The position numbers and the translations under genes are program-made. Positions 2,026 to 63,797 of a stretch of 64,000 nt of DNA are shown here, one piece after another. How positions within the stretch are numbered: the first letter of the stretch is position 1; every line of letters begins with the position of its first letter. The DNA comes from Protoeuglena noctilucae (Eukaryota): the NCBI GenBank assembly GCA_958009085.1, contig OY253669.1:930001-994000 (forward strand), written 5' to 3'. The notes beneath the pieces are model-generated. The model ran no database searches, had not been told where the DNA came from, and saw only the letters and a program-made list of their open reading frames with translations.

Positions 2026-2730
2026 ATGTCTGGGGTGAGCGAGTCGGGGCGGGAGCGGGCCCCTGGGTGCTGGGGCGGGAGCACAACTTGCAGGCGCCCC
2101 AAGTCTCGCGATGCGTGAGGCAGGAGAGGCGCCTCGTCCTCGCAGGGTCCTGCATCGGAGCAGGACATCATTCTCAAGTTTCAGGACCTTCAAAACCAGC
2201 TCCATTCCATCCTCCAGAAGGCGAGCTAATTCGAGAGAGGGCGCGAGCCAACAGAAGCAGCGCCGACGCTGCCGGTGGCGATCCCATCCCGCGCTTTCCA
2301 TGACTGACACCCATGTCTTCCTTTCTTCCAGATCGCGGAGCTGGAGGGGGACTTCCATGAGCACGAGCAAGTGCTTGCGACGCTTGAGCCGCTCGATGGG
2401 TCCCGCAAATTCTGCCGGCTCGTTTCGGGCGTCCTGATCGAGCGCACGGTCGCGGAGGTCATTCCGGCCGTGAAGGGGAACCGAGACGTGAGTGAGACGC
2501 GGGCGGCTGGCATCGCGAAGCTGCGAGGCTGCGAGGCTGTCGATCTTGACCTGGGCCGCGCTCCCTCGCTGCAGAACCTGGGCCAGATCATCGCTTCCCT
2601 GAAGAACCAGATGGAGGGGAAGCAGAAGGAGATCGCCGCTTTCCAGACCAAGTACAAGATCACGGTCCGGAGTGGGCCTGCGGGCGATAAGGACGGCGCG
2701 GCCCCGGAGAACAAGGGGGTGTTAGTCTAG
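2026..2730 (+). CDS. PFDN2: Prefoldin subunit 2 (4 exons; intron 2221-2331 is GC-AG)
   Basis: EQDIILKFQDLQ...IAELEGDFHEHEQVLATLEPLDGSRKFCRLVSGVLIERTVAEVIPAV...FQTKYKI...GVLV* matches prefoldin beta subunit 2. Confidence 0.92.
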
Positions 2731-2892
2731 GCCTGCCGATGTACCTCGGCGACTGCGACCGCCTATGGAAGATACACACCAGGCATCTCTAGGCTCGTCA
2801 CACCGGCACTGCCTGCCAGCACCTGTGGGAGCGCCAGCCTCCCAGGTATGAAGACCTACGTGGCAATTCTCCGACACAATAATGTTCCCGCA

Positions 2893-5236
2893 ATGGAGGA
2901 GCAGGGCACAGCAACATTGGATGTTCTCCCGCACACTGTGCTGGCCGAAATCGCCAGCCGCTGCAGCCCCCGCGACGCATGCGCCCTCTCGCTCGTATCG
3001 CGGCCCCTGAGGGCTGCCGTATCCGGCAACGACTACTTCTGGGGCGCATGCGTGTCGCGGCGATGGGGGAAGGGACGAACGCCCCGCGATGGGGACGGAA
3101 GGGAGCCGCGCAATGACTTCCATTCCCGACACTCCCGTGGTGAGCGAGGCGTCATTTATTACAGCGTGCACCCGCTTGCACAGATTACAATCACTACTTT
3201 CTATCGACATCGACATCGTGAGAGAACGTCCCCGCATTCGCAGCGGCGGGGTGGCGTGGCCCTGCGCCCCCAGGGACACTTATATGGGGCGTTCCTCACG
3301 TCCTCGAACCTGGGCGGGAGCGCTTGGCCACTGCCGGGGTCGTGCCGCAAGCGCAGCCAGGGGCCGAGCCGGCCGCTTTCCTGAGGCTCGAGCCGGGTGG
3401 GGCCACCTCGCCTGGCTGCCCGGGGCTGCTGCTGGGCGGCATGGGGCCCCGCCTGCTGCTCTGTTCCCTGCGTGAAGGTGGCGAGTGGGGTCCCGCGTGC
3501 ACCCTGCCGCCGCTGCGGAGCGTGGGGAGAGTTACGGCAGCGTGTGCCCTGATGGACAGGCGCGTCGTTGCCGGCACGGAGGCGGGGAGCGTGCACTGCG
3601 TCGAGAGGCAGGCAGGAGGCGACTGGGCCCGGCCAGGCCTCCTTAGCGGTGGACCCAAGGCCCCCGGGCCTGGGATCAGGGCTCTCGTGCCGCTGGGCCC
3701 AGCTGCAGTGGCGGCAGCGGCTGCGGACGGAACCCTGCGCATCCTGCCCGTGCATCCGCGGAGGCAGGCGGACGGCGCCCCATGCGCAGCGGTGCTCCGA
3801 GGACACCCCACGGGCGTCGCTGCCTGCGCTGGCGTGGGCGCCCAGGGGTGGCCCGGATGGGTGGAGACAGGGGCGGCTGCCCCGGAGCGGATCATGTCTT
3901 TGGACGACGGTGGCATGGCGCTGCTCTGGGACACCCGGCAGGGAGCGGCCGTCACTCGTTGGAAGCCAGCGTGAGCGTTGCGGCTGGAGCAGAGCCTGTT
4001 TCCAGACTCGCAAGCGCCAGAGCGGCATGCATGTGTTCATTGGCTGCTCGCAGGGCGCAGGCACGGGCTGTGTATGGCGGTCTCCTGGTGGGGGCGGGGG
4101 AGGGTAACGTGACGGTGGCCGTGACAGTCGAGGGCGGGGCGAGGACCGTGGCACAGGCGCTGGACGCGCGGGACAGGCGCGGGCACGTCCTGATGCAGTG
4201 CCCTGACGCAGCGACGGTCGCGGCCGGGCACGGCTGGAGCCTGGCCCTGGGCGGGGCGGCCGCGGCTCGAGACGGACCGCACGCCGCGTGCGCGGTGTGG
4301 GACCTGCGGGGAGGGTCAAGCGCAGTGGGGCGCGGCGGTCCTCGACTGGTCCTCGAGGTTCCGAAGTGAGAAGAGGCACAAGCAAGCGAGCCATGTGCCC
4401 TTTGCGTGTTGGCAATGTTTGGGTGCTGCAGGTGGCACCTCCGGCATCCACTGATTGCCTTCATTAATGACGCTTTGTCGACCCCAACCCTGCAGGCTCC
4501 CTAGAATGTGTACTGAGCTGTGCATGGATCGACACAAGATCGTTGCGGCGTGCGTGGCGCGGACGGTCAGAGGCGAGCGGCGTCGCAGTCACGCGCTGTC
4601 GCAGCCCAGGAAGTTGCCGCACTTCACACATAAGCCCTTGCTCTTCTCCCCAGCGCTGCGGAGTCCTCGTGGGGTTGTGTGCGTATGGGGACCCGAGACC
4701 GGGCGCCTGCGCCACTGCCTGCCCACGCTGCCAGCCGACACGATCAGGCAGATGGGTGGGGACGGGGCGAGTACGTCACCAGCGGGGCAAGAGATAGGGG
4801 CTCCCTCGGGGGTGCAGGGCGTGGAGGAGGAGGCAGCACCGGTACCTGAATGGGCGCTGCTGTGGCCCAGGAGCAGAGACGTCGAGGAGAGGCTGGGTTT
4901 GACACCAGAGGAGCACGCTGTGAGCTTGTCCGAGACTCCCATGGCACTGGCCGCACACGGCCCGGTCATCGCTTGCGCCACGGCTCACGGCGCGGTGACG
5001 GCGTGGAATTTCGACGAGTGCGTCAGGCAGACGGGGCCGCTGGAGGTGAGGCGCAGGCGTGCGTGTGGTGGGGCTGTGCTTTGTGCCGCACCGTACGCGC
5101 AAGACATCGCTGCGAGCACCGCCTTTCGCAGGGCTCTTCGTATTACGAGAGCAGCGACGGCGAGGGGGACGACGTCGATGCAGGCGAGGCGGGGTGGACA
5201 CGTTTCTGGAGGGCCAGCGACACGCCAGTCGATTGA
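2893..5236 (+). CDS. F-box / WD40-like repeat protein (multi-exon, 3' exon boundaries approximate)
   Basis: N-terminal F-box LDVLPHTVLAEIASRCSPRDACALSLVSR; intron 3140-3273 joins it in frame to degenerate WD repeats (VLRGHPTGV...DDGGMALLWD, AVWDLR, VCVWGPETG, VTAWNF). Confidence 0.75.
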
Positions 5237-5354: not shown

Positions 5355-7519
5355 CTAAAAGATGACCAGTCGTCGGAACATGGGGACGACGACGGGCTCC
5401 ATGACGAGCCGCGTGGAGAAATAGAAGATGACACCCTGCGCATGGAACGACGTGCGGGTATCAGAAAACCGTGTGCTCCTCAGCGAAAGCAGGAGACAGG
5501 CACGGCGGACTTGCGGGAACGGCATGCATCGGGCTGCAGCAGCTCACCAGGGCGATGGAGATGGGCAGGGCCGGGAGGGCTTTCCGCGAGATGGCCAGGA
5601 GCATGAGGGTCGCCACCAGACCGGCAATGACGGCCAGGTACGCCGCATAGACGGTCATCATGTCGAAAGCCGCGGCTCGGCCCACCTGCGGGGGAGGTGT
5701 TAACGCAGGTGGACCCTCGCATGCGTGAGCGTCTCACTGCGACCCCTGCCATGCGGCGATCCTGAAACAGGGCACCAGCAGGCACCGACACACGCAGCTG
5801 TTGCAAACGGGTGCCCGGGGGCTAGCGCCTCACCAGCATGCTGTAGAAAATGAAGTCTCCCAGCCCCAGCTTGAGCCCCGAGTCCCCCTCCTCCTCCTCC
5901 TCCTCGCCCGCCCTCGGTGCCCCGGGCGCGCCTCCGTTGCTGGCACCTCCGTTACTGGCGCCTACCCCGTTGGCCGGACTCGCCCCCACAGGTGGCCGGC
6001 TACGCGCAGGCGCACTCGCCGCAGCGGACGCCGGCTCCCGTGACTGTGGCGGCGATGCAAAGACCGCACGTGAGCGTCGCCACGAGTGCGTTTCGCGAGC
6101 AGCGCGTTGGATGGTGCCGCGCACCCACACACGTCCCACCGCTCACCTCCCCCACAGGCCCCGCGCCCGACTGGCTCCGCGTCTCCCGCGGGTCATCTCG
6201 TAAGGCGCCGATCGCAGAGGCCTCCGCGCCCGTGTGGCTCGCGCGGGGCTGCCCATGACCGAGGCGCGACGCCCCCACGGCCGCCACGGGCGCCCCCCTC
6301 ACGTCCCGCACCGACACGGCGCTGTCGCTCCCCGGGCCGGGCGCCGGCGCCTCGACGTCGCCCCCGTTGCGCGCCCCGTCCGCGCCGCCCCTCCGGCCGT
6401 GGCGCACCGTCCAGGCCTGGCTGTCCGACTGCACGGCGCGCGACTCGTAGACGAGCCCGGGCGGCAGCCCGTGCGACGCCAGCGCCTCCTCGACTAAGTG
6501 CCGCAGCGGCCCCCGCTTGTGCAGCACGGCGTACAGGTCATACAGCGCCATGACCCCAAGGAGGACCCAGGCGGTCCAGGAGGGCACGCGCGTGAAAATC
6601 CATGCCACGCAGATGCCGATGACGACCGTGTAGCCCTGGCGGACCTGTACGGGACACGCGAGGGGGCGAGGTGGAGGGAGCATGGGCACTTGCCAGCCAG
6701 GAGGTCGATCCGACACGCACGTGGCAGGGCGCGGACAGGAAGGCATGGAAGCCCAGCTCGGTGCCGATCAGACGCGCACGCAGCGAGAGAAGAGTTCCAA
6801 CATCGGCGCTGTGTCATCTCTCTCGAGGCAGGGGCGCGCGGGGCTCACCGTGAGGGGCAGGGGGACAAAGTCAAGCATCCCTGCGACCCCAATAGCCGCG
6901 AAATTGTAGAGGAGGAGGACAAGGGATATCAGGTCCCACGTCCAGTCAAACCGGTGCGTGAGCTTGATCAGTATCAGCCCTGTGGAGGTTCAGGCAAGGC
7001 AGCTCGTCACGCCCGGCAGGCCGACGCCTGAGCCGAGCAGACACAGCCCGGCGAGGCGCTCTCACCGACGATGAGGAAGAAGACGTCAAACATGACGAGC
7101 GCCATGTAGCCCCGGATGACCTTGAAGCACTTGAGCTTGTACAGGATGAGGAGGACGACTGCAGGGAGCGAGAAGTGGGGCGCTGGTACAAGTCGAGGCA
7201 GAGGGGGCACCAACGACGGCGCCGTCGTGCGAGCGCTGCGTCGGCCGTCACCGGTGAAGGCGGTGATGATGGCGACGAAGATGAGGGCGTTGACGAGCGC
7301 CCCGGAGGCCTTTCGCTTGGTGGAGTCGGTGCTGCGCTCCTTGTACGCGATGGTCGCGGCCGTGCTCGTGCTCGTCTGCGACCCCGTCGGGTCCAGCGTC
7401 CGGACCAGCGCCACGACGGCGGCGATGCAGATGGTGACGGGCGCCATGATGCCAATTACCTCCTCCCCCAGGCGGTCCAGGACACCTGGCACGCGCCGGA
7501 ACTTGGACCGGAACCGCAT
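5355..7519 (-). CDS. PSEN: Presenilin (gamma-secretase catalytic subunit), multi-exon
   Basis: Catalytic MALYDLYAV and KLGLGDFIFYS, ALPALPISI motif, plant-like N-terminus VLDRLGEEVIGIMAPVTIC and C-terminus GVIFYFSTRLVMEP...VIF*. Confidence 0.95.
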
Positions 7520-7545
7520 CCTGTCCGCGAGCGAGGCCCGCGGCA

Positions 7546-7836
7546 CTACTCCGGTGCACTCCGCGGGTCCGGCGCCTGGCCAGGGCCGAGCTGAGGGCTG
7601 CCTCCGTCCGCCCCGGGGCGCAGGGCATCCGCCAGCAGCTCCTCCGCGATGATTGTCAGCGCCAGCAGCGCCTCCGGGGTCAGGGACTGGATGACCCGCT
7701 TCTTCCGCGCGCGCTCCGCTGCAATTTCCGAGCCCAGGCCCTGGATACGCGCCCCCAGGTCGTGCGTGGAGCCCCTCTGGGGCGCCCCCGCCACCCCGCT
7801 CGATCCGCTGGCCTTCCCACCACGCGGAGCTTCCAT
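7546..7836 (-). CDS. Small intronless 96-aa ORF of unknown function directly upstream of presenilin
   Basis: ATG-to-TAG ORF with G/C-ending codon bias and a helical-looking core EIAAERARKKRVIQSLTPEALLALTIIAEELLADAL. Confidence 0.55.
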   Translation of the reverse strand: MEAPRGGKASGSSGVAGAPQRGSTHDLGARIQGLGSEIAAERARKKRVIQSLTPEALLALTIIAEELLADALRPGADGGSPQLGPGQAPDPRSAPE

Positions 7837-8520
7837 AGATGGTCACGAGGAAAGCTCGCTTTCTCCCACCCGCAGCGCAGGCGGGCGTGTGCAGGTGCGC
7901 CCAGCTGGCGGGGCCCTGGTCTCCCACACTTGGGGCGGCTGCCTTGCGGTCGTAGCTATGCAGGAGAAACACTGGCATCGGCGTGCCCGTCCGAGCGGCT
8001 TCTCGTGCCAGCTAAGCTGGGTACGTGCCCTCGCCCGAAACGTCTGCCAGTTGGAGCGTCGCGGGCCCTATCTGCGCCCATGGCCCGCCGGCAGCGAGAG
8101 AAAGGGATTCGCCGGAACTGACAGTACCGTACCGAGCCAGGTATGTGGCCGCGCGCGCTCGCTCGGCAGCCTTACTCGCTGCCGGCCATCGATGCGCCGC
8201 GCGCGATCCCTCCTCGACGTCGCTTGAACCATCCTGCGATGAAATCGCCGCCGGCGAGGCTTCTACGCGCCCCCATCGGCTCGGGAGCGCCGACCCCCGT
8301 CGTTGGCGTTCCGGGACGGCCCTGCGCCCGGAGGAGCCAGCGGGAGCGCGCTCGTCGCGTCCACTGCGCTGTATGGACCTCCTTCGTCCGGTCCCCGCCG
8401 CAGGAGACTCCGCATACGCGCGAGCCGTTTGCCGTCTGGCTGTCCGCGCCCCCGAGCCCCCCGCGCCTCGCCACCCGGCGCCTGCCCCCGCCGAGCGCGG
8501 AAGGGACGCAAGAGCGCGCC

Positions 8521-10568
8521 ATGAGCGCGTCCAGGAAGCTCCCGTCGTCCAAGGACGACGCGCCCTACATGACGACCAACTCGGGCGCGCCCGTCTTCAA
8601 CAACCAGAGCTCCTTCACCGTCGGCGACAGGTGCGTTCGGCCCTGCTGCTGCCTCGCCGTCGAAGCGCTGCCTGCCTGCCCGCCCCCTCGCTCCGCGCGC
8701 CCGGCCTGCGCAGGGTCGTCCTGACCCTGCTTGTGGTCGCCTTCGCAGGGGCCCCGTGCTGCTGGAGGACTACCATCTGATCGAGAAGATCGCCCAGTTC
8801 GACAGGGAGCGCATCCCCGAGCGCGTGGTGCACGCGCGGGGCGCTTCCGCGAAGGGATTCTTCGAGGCGAGCCGCTGAGCCCACAGCAGACGTGGACGAG
8901 GCTTCTGCCGTCGCAATCCGCTTCCTTCGGGCTGGGGCCTCGCTCCTCCGGTTTCGCTTATGCCAGTTTCACTTCCCCATCGCCACTCTCGCGTCCGTCC
9001 CCGCGCAGGTGACGCACGACATCTCCAACCTGACGGCCGCGGACCTCTTCCGCGCCCCCGGCGTCCAGACCCCCGTCATCGTGCGCTTCTCGACCGTCAT
9101 CCACGAGCGCGGCTCCCCTGAGACCCTGCGCGACCCCCGCGGGTTCGCGGTCAAGGTGAGCGCCATGACGGGCGCTGTGACGTGCCCCTGCACCTGCCGC
9201 TGGCCGCCCAACACGGCAACCCCCGCGCTGCCCGCAGTTCTACACGCGCGAGGGCAACTGGGACCTGGTCGGCAACAACCTGCCGGTGAGTGCCGGAGCT
9301 GTCTGGCCGACCACGGCCGGAACCGTGTCTCTGGCCGGTGGTGCCTGCAGCTGTCTGACAGAGAGCCTCTCTCTCCGCTGCCCCGCAGGTCTTCTTCATT
9401 CGCGACGGCATGAAGTTTCCGGACATGGTCCATGCGCTGAAGCCCAACCCGCGCACCAACATCCAGGAGGGGTGGCGGATGGCGGACTTCTTCAGCCACC
9501 ACCCCGAGTCGTGCCACATGATGACGTGGCTGCACGACGACCTGGGCATCCCGAGCGACTACCGCCACATGGACGGCTTCGGCGTGCACACGTACAAGCT
9601 CGTGGCGCGCGACGGCCGCGAGACGCTCGTCAAGTTCCACTGGAAGACGCGGCAGGGCCTGAAGTGCCTGGTGGGCGACGAGCCGGCTCTCGTGGGCGGG
9701 CGCAACCACTCGCACGCGACCCAGGACCTGTACGACGCGATTGAGCGCGGGGAGTACCCCGAGTGGACGCTGTGCCTCCAGCTCATGGACCCCCGGGACG
9801 AGGACAAGTACGACTTCGACCCGCTCGACCCCACCAAGACGTGGCCCGAGGACCAGTTCCCGCTGCAGCCCGTCGGCCGCATGGTCCTCAACCAGAACCC
9901 CGACAACTTCTTTGCCGAGAACGAGCAGCTCGCCTTCTGCCCGTCCCTCGTCGTCCCCGGCATCACCTACTCGGACGACAAGCTCCTCCAGTCGCGCCTC
10001 TTCTCGTACGCCGACACCCAGCGCTACCGGCTCGGGCCTAACTACCTCATGCTCCCCGCCAACGCCCCCAAGTGCCCCTTCCACAACAACCACCACGAGG
10101 GGCCCATGAACTTCATGCACCGCGAGGGCGAGGTCAACTACTTCCCCTCCCGCGTCGACCAGACCAAGCACGCCCAGGAGTACCCGGTCAGCCAGGCGCG
10201 GCTAGAGGGGCCCCGCTCCAAGGCCATCATCCGCAAGGAGAACAACTTCAAGCAGGCCGGCGACAGGTGGAGGTCCTTCGATCGCGCGCGCCAGCAGCGC
10301 TTCGTCGACAACTTCTGCCAGTGGCTGTGCCACCCCAGGTGAGGCCGGGTGGAGGGTGCGAGATGGCGCAGGCGATAGCGTTGCACAGCGGCAACCTCGG
10401 GCGCCTGACCGACGCCGACCCGCCCGCCCCCGCAGGACGACCCGCGAGGCGCAGCAGGTGTGGGTGGGGTACTGGACCCAGTGCGACCCCGAGCTGGGCC
10501 GCATGATGGGGGCGCGCGTGCAGCAGGCGCAGCAGGCGCACGGGGTGGCGCCCACGGCTGCCATGTAG
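8521..10568 (+). CDS. CAT: Monofunctional heme catalase, plant/algal type (6 exons; intron 8867-9008 is GC-AG)
   Basis: [65 protein letters not shown], heme-ligand motif RLFSYADTQ. Confidence 0.98.
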
Positions 10569-10720: not shown

Positions 10721-12521
10721 TCAGATGAGACTTGCCGGCGCGTCCCACTGCGTCTGCCCGTTCGCCGCGTTGTAGTAGTACGGGCGGCCGTCGTCTGTGT
10801 AGTACACCTGCCACCCCGTCGGCGGGTGCGAGGCGGTCGGCGCGTACGACTGGTGGTAGCCCGCGTGCGGCCCTGGCGCGTGCTGTTGCGGGGCGGCAGC
10901 CACGGGAGCGTAGCTGTACTGCGCCGGCGCGGGGCCGCGGAGGGCGTCCACGTTGACTGGCTCGTAGTCCAACGCCTCAATGCGGATCGGGCCGCCCGGG
11001 GCGCTCCGTGCCGAGACGGCCGAGTACGGGTCGTCCCGGTTGCCGCGCCCGCCCATCGATCCCCCGCCTGAGACGGTCGGGATGTCGCCCCAGCTGCTGT
11101 CCACCCGGTCGCCCCCGCCGTGACCCCGCGACCCGCCATTGCTGCTCCTCCTGCAGGGAGCGAGGGGAGTGCGGCGATGGGGCGCATTCAAAACCATCTT
11201 CGCACGCATCCCGCCCGCGCAGCAACGCCCGCGGCGCTCACTCGAAGCCCCCGGAAGCGCTCGGGCCGGGCCTGCGGTTGGCGCTGTGCGACTCGAGCTG
11301 CGCCGTCAGCTTGGACATCCAGTCCGAGGAACCCTGCGGCGCCTTCCGCTCCACCGGCCTGCGGGAGCCGAGGAAGAGCAGGGTCTATTGCAAACCCGCC
11401 TGGCTGGGCGCACCAACCCAATGCCTCACGTCCCCTGCGGCGCGCACCTCGCGGGCGCCGGGCCGCCCTTGATGGCGTTCTCAATGGCCGAAATCCACTC
11501 CACGGCCTCCGTCTCGCTGCTGGTGAGGAAGATGTGCTTGTCCGTGTCGGTCGTGATGCAAATAGAGGTGGACTTCCCTGCAGCACAGGCCAGAGCCAGG
11601 TCGTGCGTGGCGGGGAGCGCGTCAGGGCGCGCCCGGCGGCGCTGCGTCGGGCGTATCTCCGCACCTGTCTCCCGCGACGCGTCCGACACATCGGTGGCCT
11701 TGCTCAGGTTGACGACGCCGCGCGGGCGCGAGGTCGGGTCGATGGTCGCGTTGAGGAAGCGGAACAGGAAGCGGTCCTTCAGCACAAACCTGCGGCGAAT
11801 GATGAAGCGCGGTCTCAGGGAGCCGCGTAGCTGCACAGGCGCAACCCGCGCCCTGCGCCCAGGGCTGCACGCAAGCACCATGGCACGTCGGTCGGCGTGC
11901 CCCTCACCAGCGCTTGCGCCAGGTCTTGATGTGCTCCCCCTGCGACATCAGCCATCCCTCCTTCACCGGGTCCGCCCAGAAACGCACGCCCTGCCCCGAA
12001 TCCCCCACGGGCGCCTTGGCTTCCTTCCGCGGCTGGGGCTCGGGCTCCGAAAGCTCCGCGGCCCTGCAGAGGGGGCCCGACAGCAACGGCATGAGCTCCA
12101 CTCATCCCACGTACCTCTCGCTCGCGCGCGCAGGCCGATGTGCGCCCCCACCGCGGTGGGTCAGCGCACCCTCGGGCCCCGGAGGCCTGAGCCACCCATC
12201 GGCCGCGACTCACTGGACGCAGCACGAGACAAGGGTGTCGAGCAGCTCCGACATGACCCTCGCGTTCCCTGTGAGGACGATTTCGCCCGCGCTCCCTCCC
12301 TCGGGGCGTTTGAGGTCCAGGGTCAGCACGGCACCCCGCAGATCCCACTTGTCAATGTTTTTCAAGCCCACTTCCTTCAGGGCGTGCGAGCCGGAGGGCG
12401 TCAGCAGCTTGAAGCCCGAGAGGCCGACCTCCACGACGATCTTGTCCGAGCTAGCCCCGTCCTGGCCCACCAGGTGAACGTTCTCGAACCTGTCGGTCCG
12501 CCCGCCCATGAGGTGGGCCAT
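10721..12521 (-). CDS. Protein with N-terminal FREE1-type PH-like domain, central PH domain and C-terminal WW domain
   Basis: PH: KEGWLMSQGEHIKTWRKRWFVLK...PRGVVNLS...EAVEWISAIENA; WW: PTGWQVYYTDDGRPYYYNAANGQTQWDAP; N-terminal VEVGLSGFKLL...ELLDTLVSCCVQ. Confidence 0.8.
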
Positions 12522-62200: not shown

Positions 62201-63797
62201 GCCTTGCCTGAGGCCTGCTGAGACCCACCAGCGGCCGACGAGCTGCGCACGCCATGTGCACATCATAGGACTATGCGCGTTGTAACATCTGCAAATAATG
62301 CATTTGATACAGCTCTCATAGCGTTCTCACTCCGTCTCGCAGGCGTACGGCTATGGGGCGAGCCAGGCCCAGGCCCCCAGCTCTCCCTACGCTGCGGCCG
62401 CGCCAGCACAGCTCCAGAGGTGACGACCGGGAATGCCGATGCTCACATGGCGCACGCATGCTAGCGTTTGTCTTGCACCCAGCGCAGCCGCGCACCGCAC
62501 TGCGCGTTGCGTCTCTCTCCCACCGCAGCACAGCTGTACGATGCCCTCGTCAGTGTTATGCCTTATCGACAGCTGCTCGCTGATCCCCGCAGCGTGCCGT
62601 CGATGGCTGGCCGCAACTTCAGCCCGTCGGCTTCGGTGAACGCGGCCCAGGGCCCGGCTGTGCCTTCCGCCCAGGCTCCCGCCGCTGCCCCGACCTCCTT
62701 CTCCCGCCACGTGTACAACACGGGCGGCAACTACAACGCGGGCCGCGCGGGGGGCCAGCCGGCACCTGGGGCCCAGGCTGTGCCTGCTTCAGGGGGCTAC
62801 GCTATGCAGGGTCGGCCGCAGCAGCAGCCGCAGCTGCAGCAGCAGCCCTCTATGGGCGGATGGGGCGGTGCGGGAGGCATCGGGGCGACGCAGGTGCAGC
62901 CCACGGAGCCGAGTGGTGCCATGGGTGGGTGGGGCGCCAACGCGCCAGCGATGGCGACGCCGGCCATGCCCGCGGCAGTGCCCCAGGCGCCCTCGATGAT
63001 GGTACCGGGGCAGGGCATGGCCCCTCCGCAGCCGTCGCAGAGCCCCCAAGGCCCTCCGCCCAACCTCGCGCTCAGGTGAGCCTCACATATGCTGTGGTGA
63101 TAGAGACGACTGGTCTCGGCCTCAGTCATGGGGTCTGGGTCGCGTGTGTACGTCCGCCCCGCATCTCAAATGTGCCGCGGACGCGCTCTGCACCCGCCAC
63201 TCCACCGCCGCCACCCGCAAGCGCACGTGCGGTTGGGTGCACGCTGACACGCATTCCCCGCCACTTCTCTCTGCAGCTCGTTTGATGAGAAGGCTCTTCA
63301 TAACCCCAAGTTCATGGACTTCCTTCGTCCGTTCAAGCGGCTGCTCGAGATGTGCCGCCACAGCGCCACCGTGCAGGGCATGCCAGCGGCGAGGCACAAG
63401 GAGCTTGACGACATCGACAGGTGATTAGTTGCCGTCACGAGAAGTGCACCAGGGTAATGTGGGAATGCGCAACCTGCAGATGGCTGCAAGACTGGCGTTG
63501 GGAACGCGTGAAATTCGCCTGGCACGGGCCCATCCGTCAGTGGGCTCATGCGTCGCCCTCACTGTGCCCACTGTCACCCCTGGTCGCAGGAAGCTGGGGC
63601 AGCAGCTGGTGTGGCAGCTCATGCAGGGGTCGATGCGCCCTGAGATCCAGCAACTCCTATTCGTCCTGGGCTATGCCGTCGAGCGGCAGGAAACGGAGAG
63701 GGTGACGCACTTCGTCACGTCCCTCGTCAAGGGATACTTCGACGAGTGCCCGTGGATCCCGTCGCTCAAGCGCCTCTTTAAGCTCTCCGGGCTCTGA
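59218..63797 (+). CDS. SEC31: COPII outer coat protein SEC31, multi-exon
   Basis: MHLKTVDRSA...ACGTLAGAV, KHTGPVKGLDLNPFQ.NL.ASA, WNYKVQHILA, WHPSVATQLIVAS, APRWLERP.AATFGFGGRL, WRETLALLCTYA, Gly/Gln/Pro-rich linker, C-terminal helical domain ending WIPSLKRL. Confidence 0.97.
61878..62125 (+). repeat. Coding tandem repeat, 21/24-nt units encoding GGYGGQQ(Q) (about 10 copies) in the SEC31 linker
   Basis: Translation [76 protein letters not shown], with synonymous variation between units. Confidence 0.92.

Follow-up and report, generated by a model that had tools for sequence, protein, structure and literature searches.

We describe an open reading frame (ORF) of 96 codons, here called ORF96, that lies directly ahead of the presenilin gene of Protoeuglena noctilucae in a window of 64,000 nucleotides (64 kb; contig OY253669.1, positions 930,001 to 994,000) with a GC content of 67.5%. 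ORF96 and presenilin are encoded on the same strand, and their co-transcription is supported by RNA contigs from four metatranscriptome runs. Judged from the order of the start codons and from codon usage, ORF96 may be the 5'-proximal cistron of a bicistronic mRNA from which presenilin would be translated by leaky scanning, a reading to which we give nearly an even chance. The elements on which the argument rests are the following.

7836..7546, minus strand: ORF96, with the start codon ATG at 7836-7834, the stop codon TAG at 7548-7546, 96 codons, and a sole methionine at position 1.
7839..7834, minus strand: start context of ORF96, tctATGg, with T at -3 (weak) and G at +4.
7621..7767, minus strand: core of ORF96 (codons 24-72), with two predicted helices and exon-like codon usage.
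7628-7626, minus strand: second upstream ATG, cggATGc, in weak context and out of frame with both ORF96 and presenilin.
7545-7520, minus strand: spacer of 26 nt between the ORF96 stop codon and the presenilin ATG, bridged by RNA contigs in all four runs.
7519-7517, minus strand: presenilin ATG, 317 nt from the ORF96 ATG and thus in a different frame.
7837..7949, minus strand: 5' part of the leader, at least 113 nt, RNA-covered (contigs 7718-7949 in run X1 and 7706-7939 in run X3) and without ATG.

The first-pass annotation of this DNA had placed ORF96 (7836-7546, single methionine, TAG at 7548-7546), the presenilin ATG at 7519 in another frame, the 26-nt gap and further ATGs at 7628 and 7978 at these same positions, and all of these coordinates were confirmed.

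The RNA evidence comes from four marine metatranscriptome runs (X1-X4, representing three samples of one study) in the form of assembled short-read contigs, which do not define transcript 5' ends, so that neither an edge of cover nor a contig break equals a transcript start. The locus was present at 100% identity in all four runs. A 1,220-nt contig of X1 contained minus-strand GT..AG splice joints at 6642/6847, 6978/7065 and 7158/7252 and, joining presenilin exons 4-1 to the leader, continued without a break from 7252 as far as 7743, a stretch that takes in the presenilin ATG, the spacer and most of ORF96. Contigs spanning 7456-7858, 7463-7808 and 7508-7719 bridged the spacer in the other three runs, ORF96 was covered by contigs in each of the four, and the upstream limit of cover was at 7949 in X1 and 7939 in X3. 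Cover was near zero in the introns, in the stretch 7950-8081 and in the intron of the 5' untranslated region (UTR) of the neighbouring catalase gene. As introns and intergenic DNA were uncovered, the signal represents RNA and not DNA carry-over. The cover up to 7949 and 7939, taken together with the bridged spacer, places the whole of ORF96 inside a presenilin leader of at least 430 nt. The minus strand has no poly(A) signal TGTAA within 7200-8000. The co-transcription of ORF96 and presenilin, which the first-pass annotation had proposed, is thereby borne out by the spliced contig reaching to 7743, the gap bridged in every run and the lack of that signal. Within the mature mRNA both the start and the stop of ORF96 lie upstream of the main start, as in an upstream ORF (uORF) by definition, and its AUG at 7836 is the first in the RNA-covered leader. 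The only minus-strand ATGs between 7949 and 7519 are those at 7836 and 7628, the latter opening a frame that overlaps the presenilin start and runs for 149 codons once the mRNA is spliced. ORF96 has no paralogue or repeat in the window, and no tandem repeat was found. A scan for bacterial promoters and terminators, of no relevance to a eukaryote, also gave nothing.

The RNA evidence also fixes the presenilin start at 7519. The frame that begins there matches the Pfam family Presenilin (PF01080, E 1e-14), and its nearest exon 1 relative in the protein collection is the presenilin of Tetraselmis striata (58% identity). Presenilins of Tetraselmis and of metagenome homologues begin 5-21 residues ahead of the LGEE motif. 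This favours a start at 7519 over an extension from the ATG at 7978, back to which the presenilin frame stays open.

The length of ORF96 alone carries no meaning; the window holds 742 ORFs starting with ATG, 218 of them with at least 96 codons, and 25-30% of simulated composition-matched 430-nt leaders contain an ORF of this size. Codon usage was scored with a model derived from 1,901 codons under Pfam matches in the window, as a log-odds value for which the five wrong frames of these stretches served as background. The training set is small and drawn from conserved domains. Over its whole length ORF96 scored 0.16 and the other five frames of the same DNA -0.10 to -1.04; being the best of its six frames, ORF96 is not the shadow of a better one. 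Composition-matched random ORFs of 85-110 codons scored -0.40±0.16, which places ORF96 about 3.5 standard deviations (SD) above them, and its score was reached by none of 482 and none of 471 such ORFs, nor by any of 1,513 from an intron-trained random model. Both the synonymous part (P ~0.005) and the amino-acid part (P 0.002-0.009) of the score exceeded those of random ORFs. In a sliding profile, positive signal in the ORF96 frame was confined to ORF96 itself and peaked at 0.84-0.89, equal to presenilin exon 1 (exon 1 being excluded from the training in that case), and the presenilin frame scored -0.4 to -1.1 between 7830 and 7620. The highest 30-codon score in local non-coding DNA was 0.22 (1,276 windows, six frames) versus 0.89 in ORF96, the non-coding set comprising 1,522 nt defined by RNA, namely eight introns, the intergenic stretch with the 5' part of the leader, and a 3'UTR. 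Stop-free wrong frames of real genes reached at most 0.69 over 30 codons and 0.52 over 60 codons, compared with 0.89 and 0.55 in ORF96. By its best 60-codon stretch ORF96 ranked 11th among 157 ATG-ORFs of 70-140 codons; among the 11 other ORFs scoring at least 0.52, Pfam support was solid for eight, weak for one and lacking for two, and none was a known wrong frame.

This mixed score can be resolved along the ORF. AlphaFold2, run on the single sequence, predicted helices at residues 24-51 and 54-72 (pLDDT 92-95) flanked by disordered tails, with 36 residues at a pLDDT of at least 90; the one control, a 126-residue ORF read out of frame from the ATG at 7628, had none. The core (codons 24-72) scored 0.65, with a synonymous part of 0.26, an amino-acid part of 0.39, and GC contents at third (GC3) and second (GC2) codon positions of 0.88 and 0.45; true 49-codon windows have synonymous scores of 0.38±0.13, amino-acid scores of 0.39±0.21 and a GC3 of 0.94±0.04. 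In amino-acid score and GC2 the core is thus indistinguishable from real exons, and the split by predicted structure into an exon-like core and non-coding-like tails explains the mixed score of the whole. The codon usage of ORF96 is beyond chance yet weaker than that of real genes. The coding-like codon bias noted in the first-pass annotation therefore holds against random ORFs and local non-coding DNA, but is weak by the standard of real genes (0.16 versus 0.85±0.21).

The predicted helices are amphipathic and charged and not of the membrane-spanning kind, and alanine, glycine, proline and arginine make up a fraction of 0.49 of ORF96, compared with 0.31 in supported coding sequence. PEN-2, whose topology comprises two membrane-spanning helices, was considered because of the size of ORF96 and its neighbour and rejected, as there was no Pfam match and the predicted helices differ. 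A weak resemblance to Rrn10-like proteins, proposed in the first-pass annotation, found no backing among Pfam families (E up to 1) or PDB sequences (E up to 10).

If ORF96 is the first cistron of a bicistronic mRNA, both proteins could arise from one transcript. The order of the AUGs and the co-transcription are shown by sequence and RNA contigs, and the leaky-scanning steps are derived by applying a scanning model together with the rule for the -3 and +4 bases given in PMC11291117. Ribosomes scanning from the cap would meet the AUG at 7836 in a context without a purine at -3 (uCU-AUG-G), and some would initiate there, yielding a lineage-restricted protein of 96 residues with a two-helix core (24-72) and disordered tails rich in glycine, alanine and proline. 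The remaining ribosomes would leak past this AUG and past the weak out-of-frame AUG at 7628 (C at -3, C at +4) to reach the presenilin AUG at 7519, which has A at -3. Reinitiation after 96 codons and across a spacer of 26 nt is unlikely, and presenilin output would hence depend on leaky scanning. ORF96 would then lower presenilin output whatever its peptide does. A functional link between ORF96 and gamma-secretase is speculation.

Several observations weigh against ORF96 as a functional cistron. Its score of 0.16 is 3.3 SD below that of Pfam-supported coding sequence, in which true 96-codon windows score 0.85±0.21 with a minimum of 0.46. Its synonymous score is 0.11, compared with 0.41±0.09 in real genes and 0.35 in the disordered loop of presenilin, which has a GC3 of 0.93. 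By mean score it ranks 15th, and two known shadow ORFs (one antisense to the LHC gene, one off-frame in the myosin gene) stand higher. The tails, which account for 47 of the 96 codons, are non-coding-like (N-terminal tail -0.37, C-terminal tail -0.33), and the sub-windows for core and tails were chosen after the data had been seen. The out-of-frame ATG at 7628 sits inside ORF96, and ATGs are not significantly depleted in the 430-nt leader, where two were observed against simulated means of 2.1 (Markov-2, P(<=2) 0.66) and 4.8 (Markov-1, P 0.14). An exhaustive HMMER search of 1.84 billion cluster representatives and a word-indexed search returned only ORF96 itself; the members of its cluster repeat this sequence with different start calls and offer no allelic variation. 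ORF96 matched neither a Pfam family (E up to 1) nor a PDB sequence (E up to 10), a Foldseek comparison of its model with the PDB gave two rows with E of at least 6 and no match, and the ESM Atlas contained no relative, with feature scores of at most 0.84 being at chance level and the Atlas' own model having a pLDDT of 0.52. Finally, no ORF96-like sequence was found upstream in 11 related presenilin loci (best tblastn E 0.3, antisense inside a presenilin exon).

These 11 loci came from a metagenome scan with presenilin exon 1 as the query (51-57% identity, ~50% GC). Upstream they have another neighbour, a gene on the same strand as presenilin, and their own uORFs are not conserved among themselves. 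The nearest relatives are at class-level distance: presenilin exon 1 is 51-58% identical, and catalase 72%. The catalase value belongs to the best non-self match, from a pedinophyte; numerous green algae and land plants come next with 66-73%. The gene pair that the first-pass annotation proposed to look for in related algae thus does not occur at these loci, but the relatives are so distant that the absence of ORF96 shows only that the pairing is not ancient and has little power as a test. In the relatives with ~50% GC, a same-strand gene with MORN-like repeats (read from translations) ends ~500 nt ahead of presenilin, for example at 2610-3502 of locus L004; there is no synteny with the window.

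The evidence has to be weighed against three other explanations. ORF96 could be a long uORF without a functional product, which arose by chance in a GC-rich, stop-poor leader of 430 nt and owes its coding-like statistics to local heterogeneity; we consider this possible, at somewhat less than an even chance. Such an ORF would at most attenuate presenilin translation by capturing scanning ribosomes, and may perhaps expose the mRNA to nonsense-mediated decay. It would be in keeping with the frequency of ORFs of at least 96 codons in simulated leaders and in the window, with the absence of a homologue from Pfam, the 1.84 billion representatives, the PDB and the ESM Atlas, with a synonymous bias and GC3 well under those of real genes and the non-coding-like tails, with the second upstream ATG inside ORF96, and with the unrelated, non-conserved uORFs ahead of presenilin in the relatives. 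In Gallaher et al. (2021, PMC7896298), moreover, uORFs are reported for about three quarters of Chlamydomonas genes and polycistrony is placed on a continuum with uORFs. A chance origin is harder to reconcile with a codon score about 3.5 SD above composition-matched random ORFs that none of the 482, 471 and 1,513 reached, with a peak exceeding anything in the 1,522 nt of local non-coding DNA, and with a core that is exon-like in amino-acid score and GC2 in an ORF that does not merely mirror a better frame.

The two remaining explanations concern the transcript and the start codon. The starts of most presenilin mRNAs might lie within ORF96 or downstream of it, which would make the long leader a minor isoform and leave ORF96 with little influence on presenilin expression. 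The depth of X1 contigs indeed drops from 14.9 in the exons (to 7743) to 7.4 at 7718-7949, and contigs break between 7719 and 7858 in three runs, although contigs cannot show starts. In the other runs, however, leader and exon depth are similar (4.3 versus 6.6 in X2, 3.0-3.2 versus 4.1 in X3, 6.0 versus 4.0 in X4), cover normally falls toward 5' ends, and neither loose ends nor pile-ups were reported in the leader, so that we regard this explanation as improbable. Less probable still is a presenilin with an N-terminal extension from the ATG at 7978, or an ORF96 that forms a separate monocistronic gene. The open presenilin frame from 7978, which the first-pass annotation had raised as a caveat, would allow the former, but it is disfavoured by the lack of RNA cover at 7950-8081 in all four runs (depth 0 to 0.11 in the bin 7948-8081, which contains the ATG), by the non-coding-like scores of the presenilin frame at 7830-7620 and by the start of the homologues close to LGEE. 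A separate gene is opposed by the contigs that bridge the spacer and by the absence of TGTAA in 7200-8000.

The bicistronic reading can be drawn out further. In a marine green alga of a deep-branching lineage, ORF96 might encode a young, lineage-restricted two-helix protein made from the presenilin mRNA. It would then be a leader ORF passing from uORF to gene, with an exon-like core and non-coding-like tails, and the dosage of its protein would be inversely coupled by leaky scanning to that of the catalytic subunit of gamma-secretase. In this full form we consider the proposal doubtful. Of the first-pass view that an uncharacterised small protein is co-transcribed with presenilin, the co-transcription stands on the RNA contigs, and the protein is unproven, given the intermediate coding signature and the lack of a homologue. 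If the bicistronic reading is true, it would extend nuclear bicistrony to a green-algal lineage without an earlier description of it, with presenilin as the downstream cistron; if ORF96 makes a stable protein, the locus may illustrate the continuum from uORF to gene that Gallaher et al. have proposed. Without a stable product, ORF96 would be an ordinary case of a long uORF that limits presenilin translation. In both cases the position of the presenilin start (7519) and the compact promoter presumably shared with catalase are of use for annotation.

The remaining features of the locus are as follows.

5355..7519, minus strand: presenilin coding region, seven exons, with the stop codon TAG at 5357-5355, from splice joints, ORFs and Pfam.
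7252..7519, minus strand: coding part of presenilin exon 1, from Pfam PF01080 and the splice joint 7252/7158, with the start context aggATGc (A at -3).
~7159-7251, 6979-7064, 6643-6846, 6044-6146, 5683-5830 and 5435-5546, minus strand: presenilin introns, each ±3 nt.
7950..8110, no strand: uncovered stretch of ~160 bp that separates the presenilin leader from the first catalase exon, a presumed shared divergent promoter.
8111..8627, plus strand: 5' end of catalase, with a short non-coding first exon ending at 8137, a 5'UTR intron at 8138-8400 (GT..AG, 263 nt) and the ATG at 8521.

The joints of the first catalase exon and the 5'UTR intron were found in X2 and X4 only, and the gene matches Pfam Catalase. 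Presenilin and catalase presumably share this compact divergent promoter region of ~160 bp. In the presenilin loop exons, RNA contigs diverge from the window at 5883-5887 and 6366 (loose ends of 155-255 nt), for which alternative splicing, assembly chimeras or a related organism are possible causes, and the splice joint 6043/6147 was seen in one run only. Just past the 3' end of presenilin, a plus-strand GT..AG joint at 5043/5130 was detected in X4 only, and presenilin cover extends down to 5152, so that a convergent gene abuts or overlaps the presenilin 3'UTR. Elsewhere in the window, Pfam searches of long open frames identified catalase, an LHC protein, myosin, RPL15, ALIX/BRO1, and ankyrin and WD40 proteins; by these matches the gene set is green-algal. 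Two ORFs without a Pfam match, at 12213-12521 (minus strand, 103 codons) and 63465-63794 (plus strand, 110 codons), reached best 60-codon scores of 0.76 and 0.69 and are probably exons of uncharacterised genes.

Three known kinds of arrangement can be compared with the ORF96-presenilin locus. The conserved-peptide uORFs of plants are leader ORFs with a peptide that may matter, and ORF96 is like them in both respects, but they are defined by conservation across species. Inhibitory leader uORFs of green algae, such as that of the long CTH1 isoform in Chlamydomonas (PMC7896298), resemble ORF96 in that they lie wholly in the leader, end shortly before the main start and are expected to lower translation of the main ORF. 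ORF96 differs from typical uORFs in its far greater length (96 codons), its coding-like core and its confidently predicted helical core.

The closest parallel is with nuclear bicistronic loci, known in chlorophyte green algae from examples such as TOM22-SDHAF3 and OST4-FAM32A in Auxenochlorella (Gallaher et al. 2021, PMC7896298; Duenas et al. 2024/2025, PMC11291117 / PMC11892635). The window alga is only distantly related to the species of these published bicistrons. A search for the word presenilin gave no occurrence in the main text of Gallaher et al. or in the supplementary files searched for the two papers (seven each), where lists consisting of gene IDs alone might conceal it; the term search did not extend to the main text of Duenas et al. 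The published high-confidence sets required support from ribosome profiling together with conservation (PMC11291117), and the RNA described here as carrying both ORFs is known from short-read contigs of one study, which the term 'exclusively bicistronic' would exceed. Unlike the first ORFs of the published pairs, ORF96 has no homologue and contains an out-of-frame ATG, and the 5' part of its leader, at least 113 nt, exceeds the published medians of 54-83 nt; these differences, too, count against the bicistronic reading. Published first ORFs have median lengths of 291-357 nt and spacers have medians of 40-183 nt, although spacing does not separate bicistrons from uORFs (PMC11291117). They are further characterized by a weak Kozak context of the first ORF and few ATGs before the second. 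In our locus the -3 base is weaker at ORF96 (T) than at presenilin (A), but the +4 base is G at the ATG at 7836 and C at that at 7519; the rule is taken from PMC11291117 and may not be the consensus of this alga. As in the published green-algal bicistrons, a small first ORF (291 nt) is followed on the same strand, after a 26-nt spacer, by a larger conserved ORF in one RNA, few ATGs (two, with no significant depletion) precede the second ORF, and leaky scanning is the mechanism proposed for its translation.

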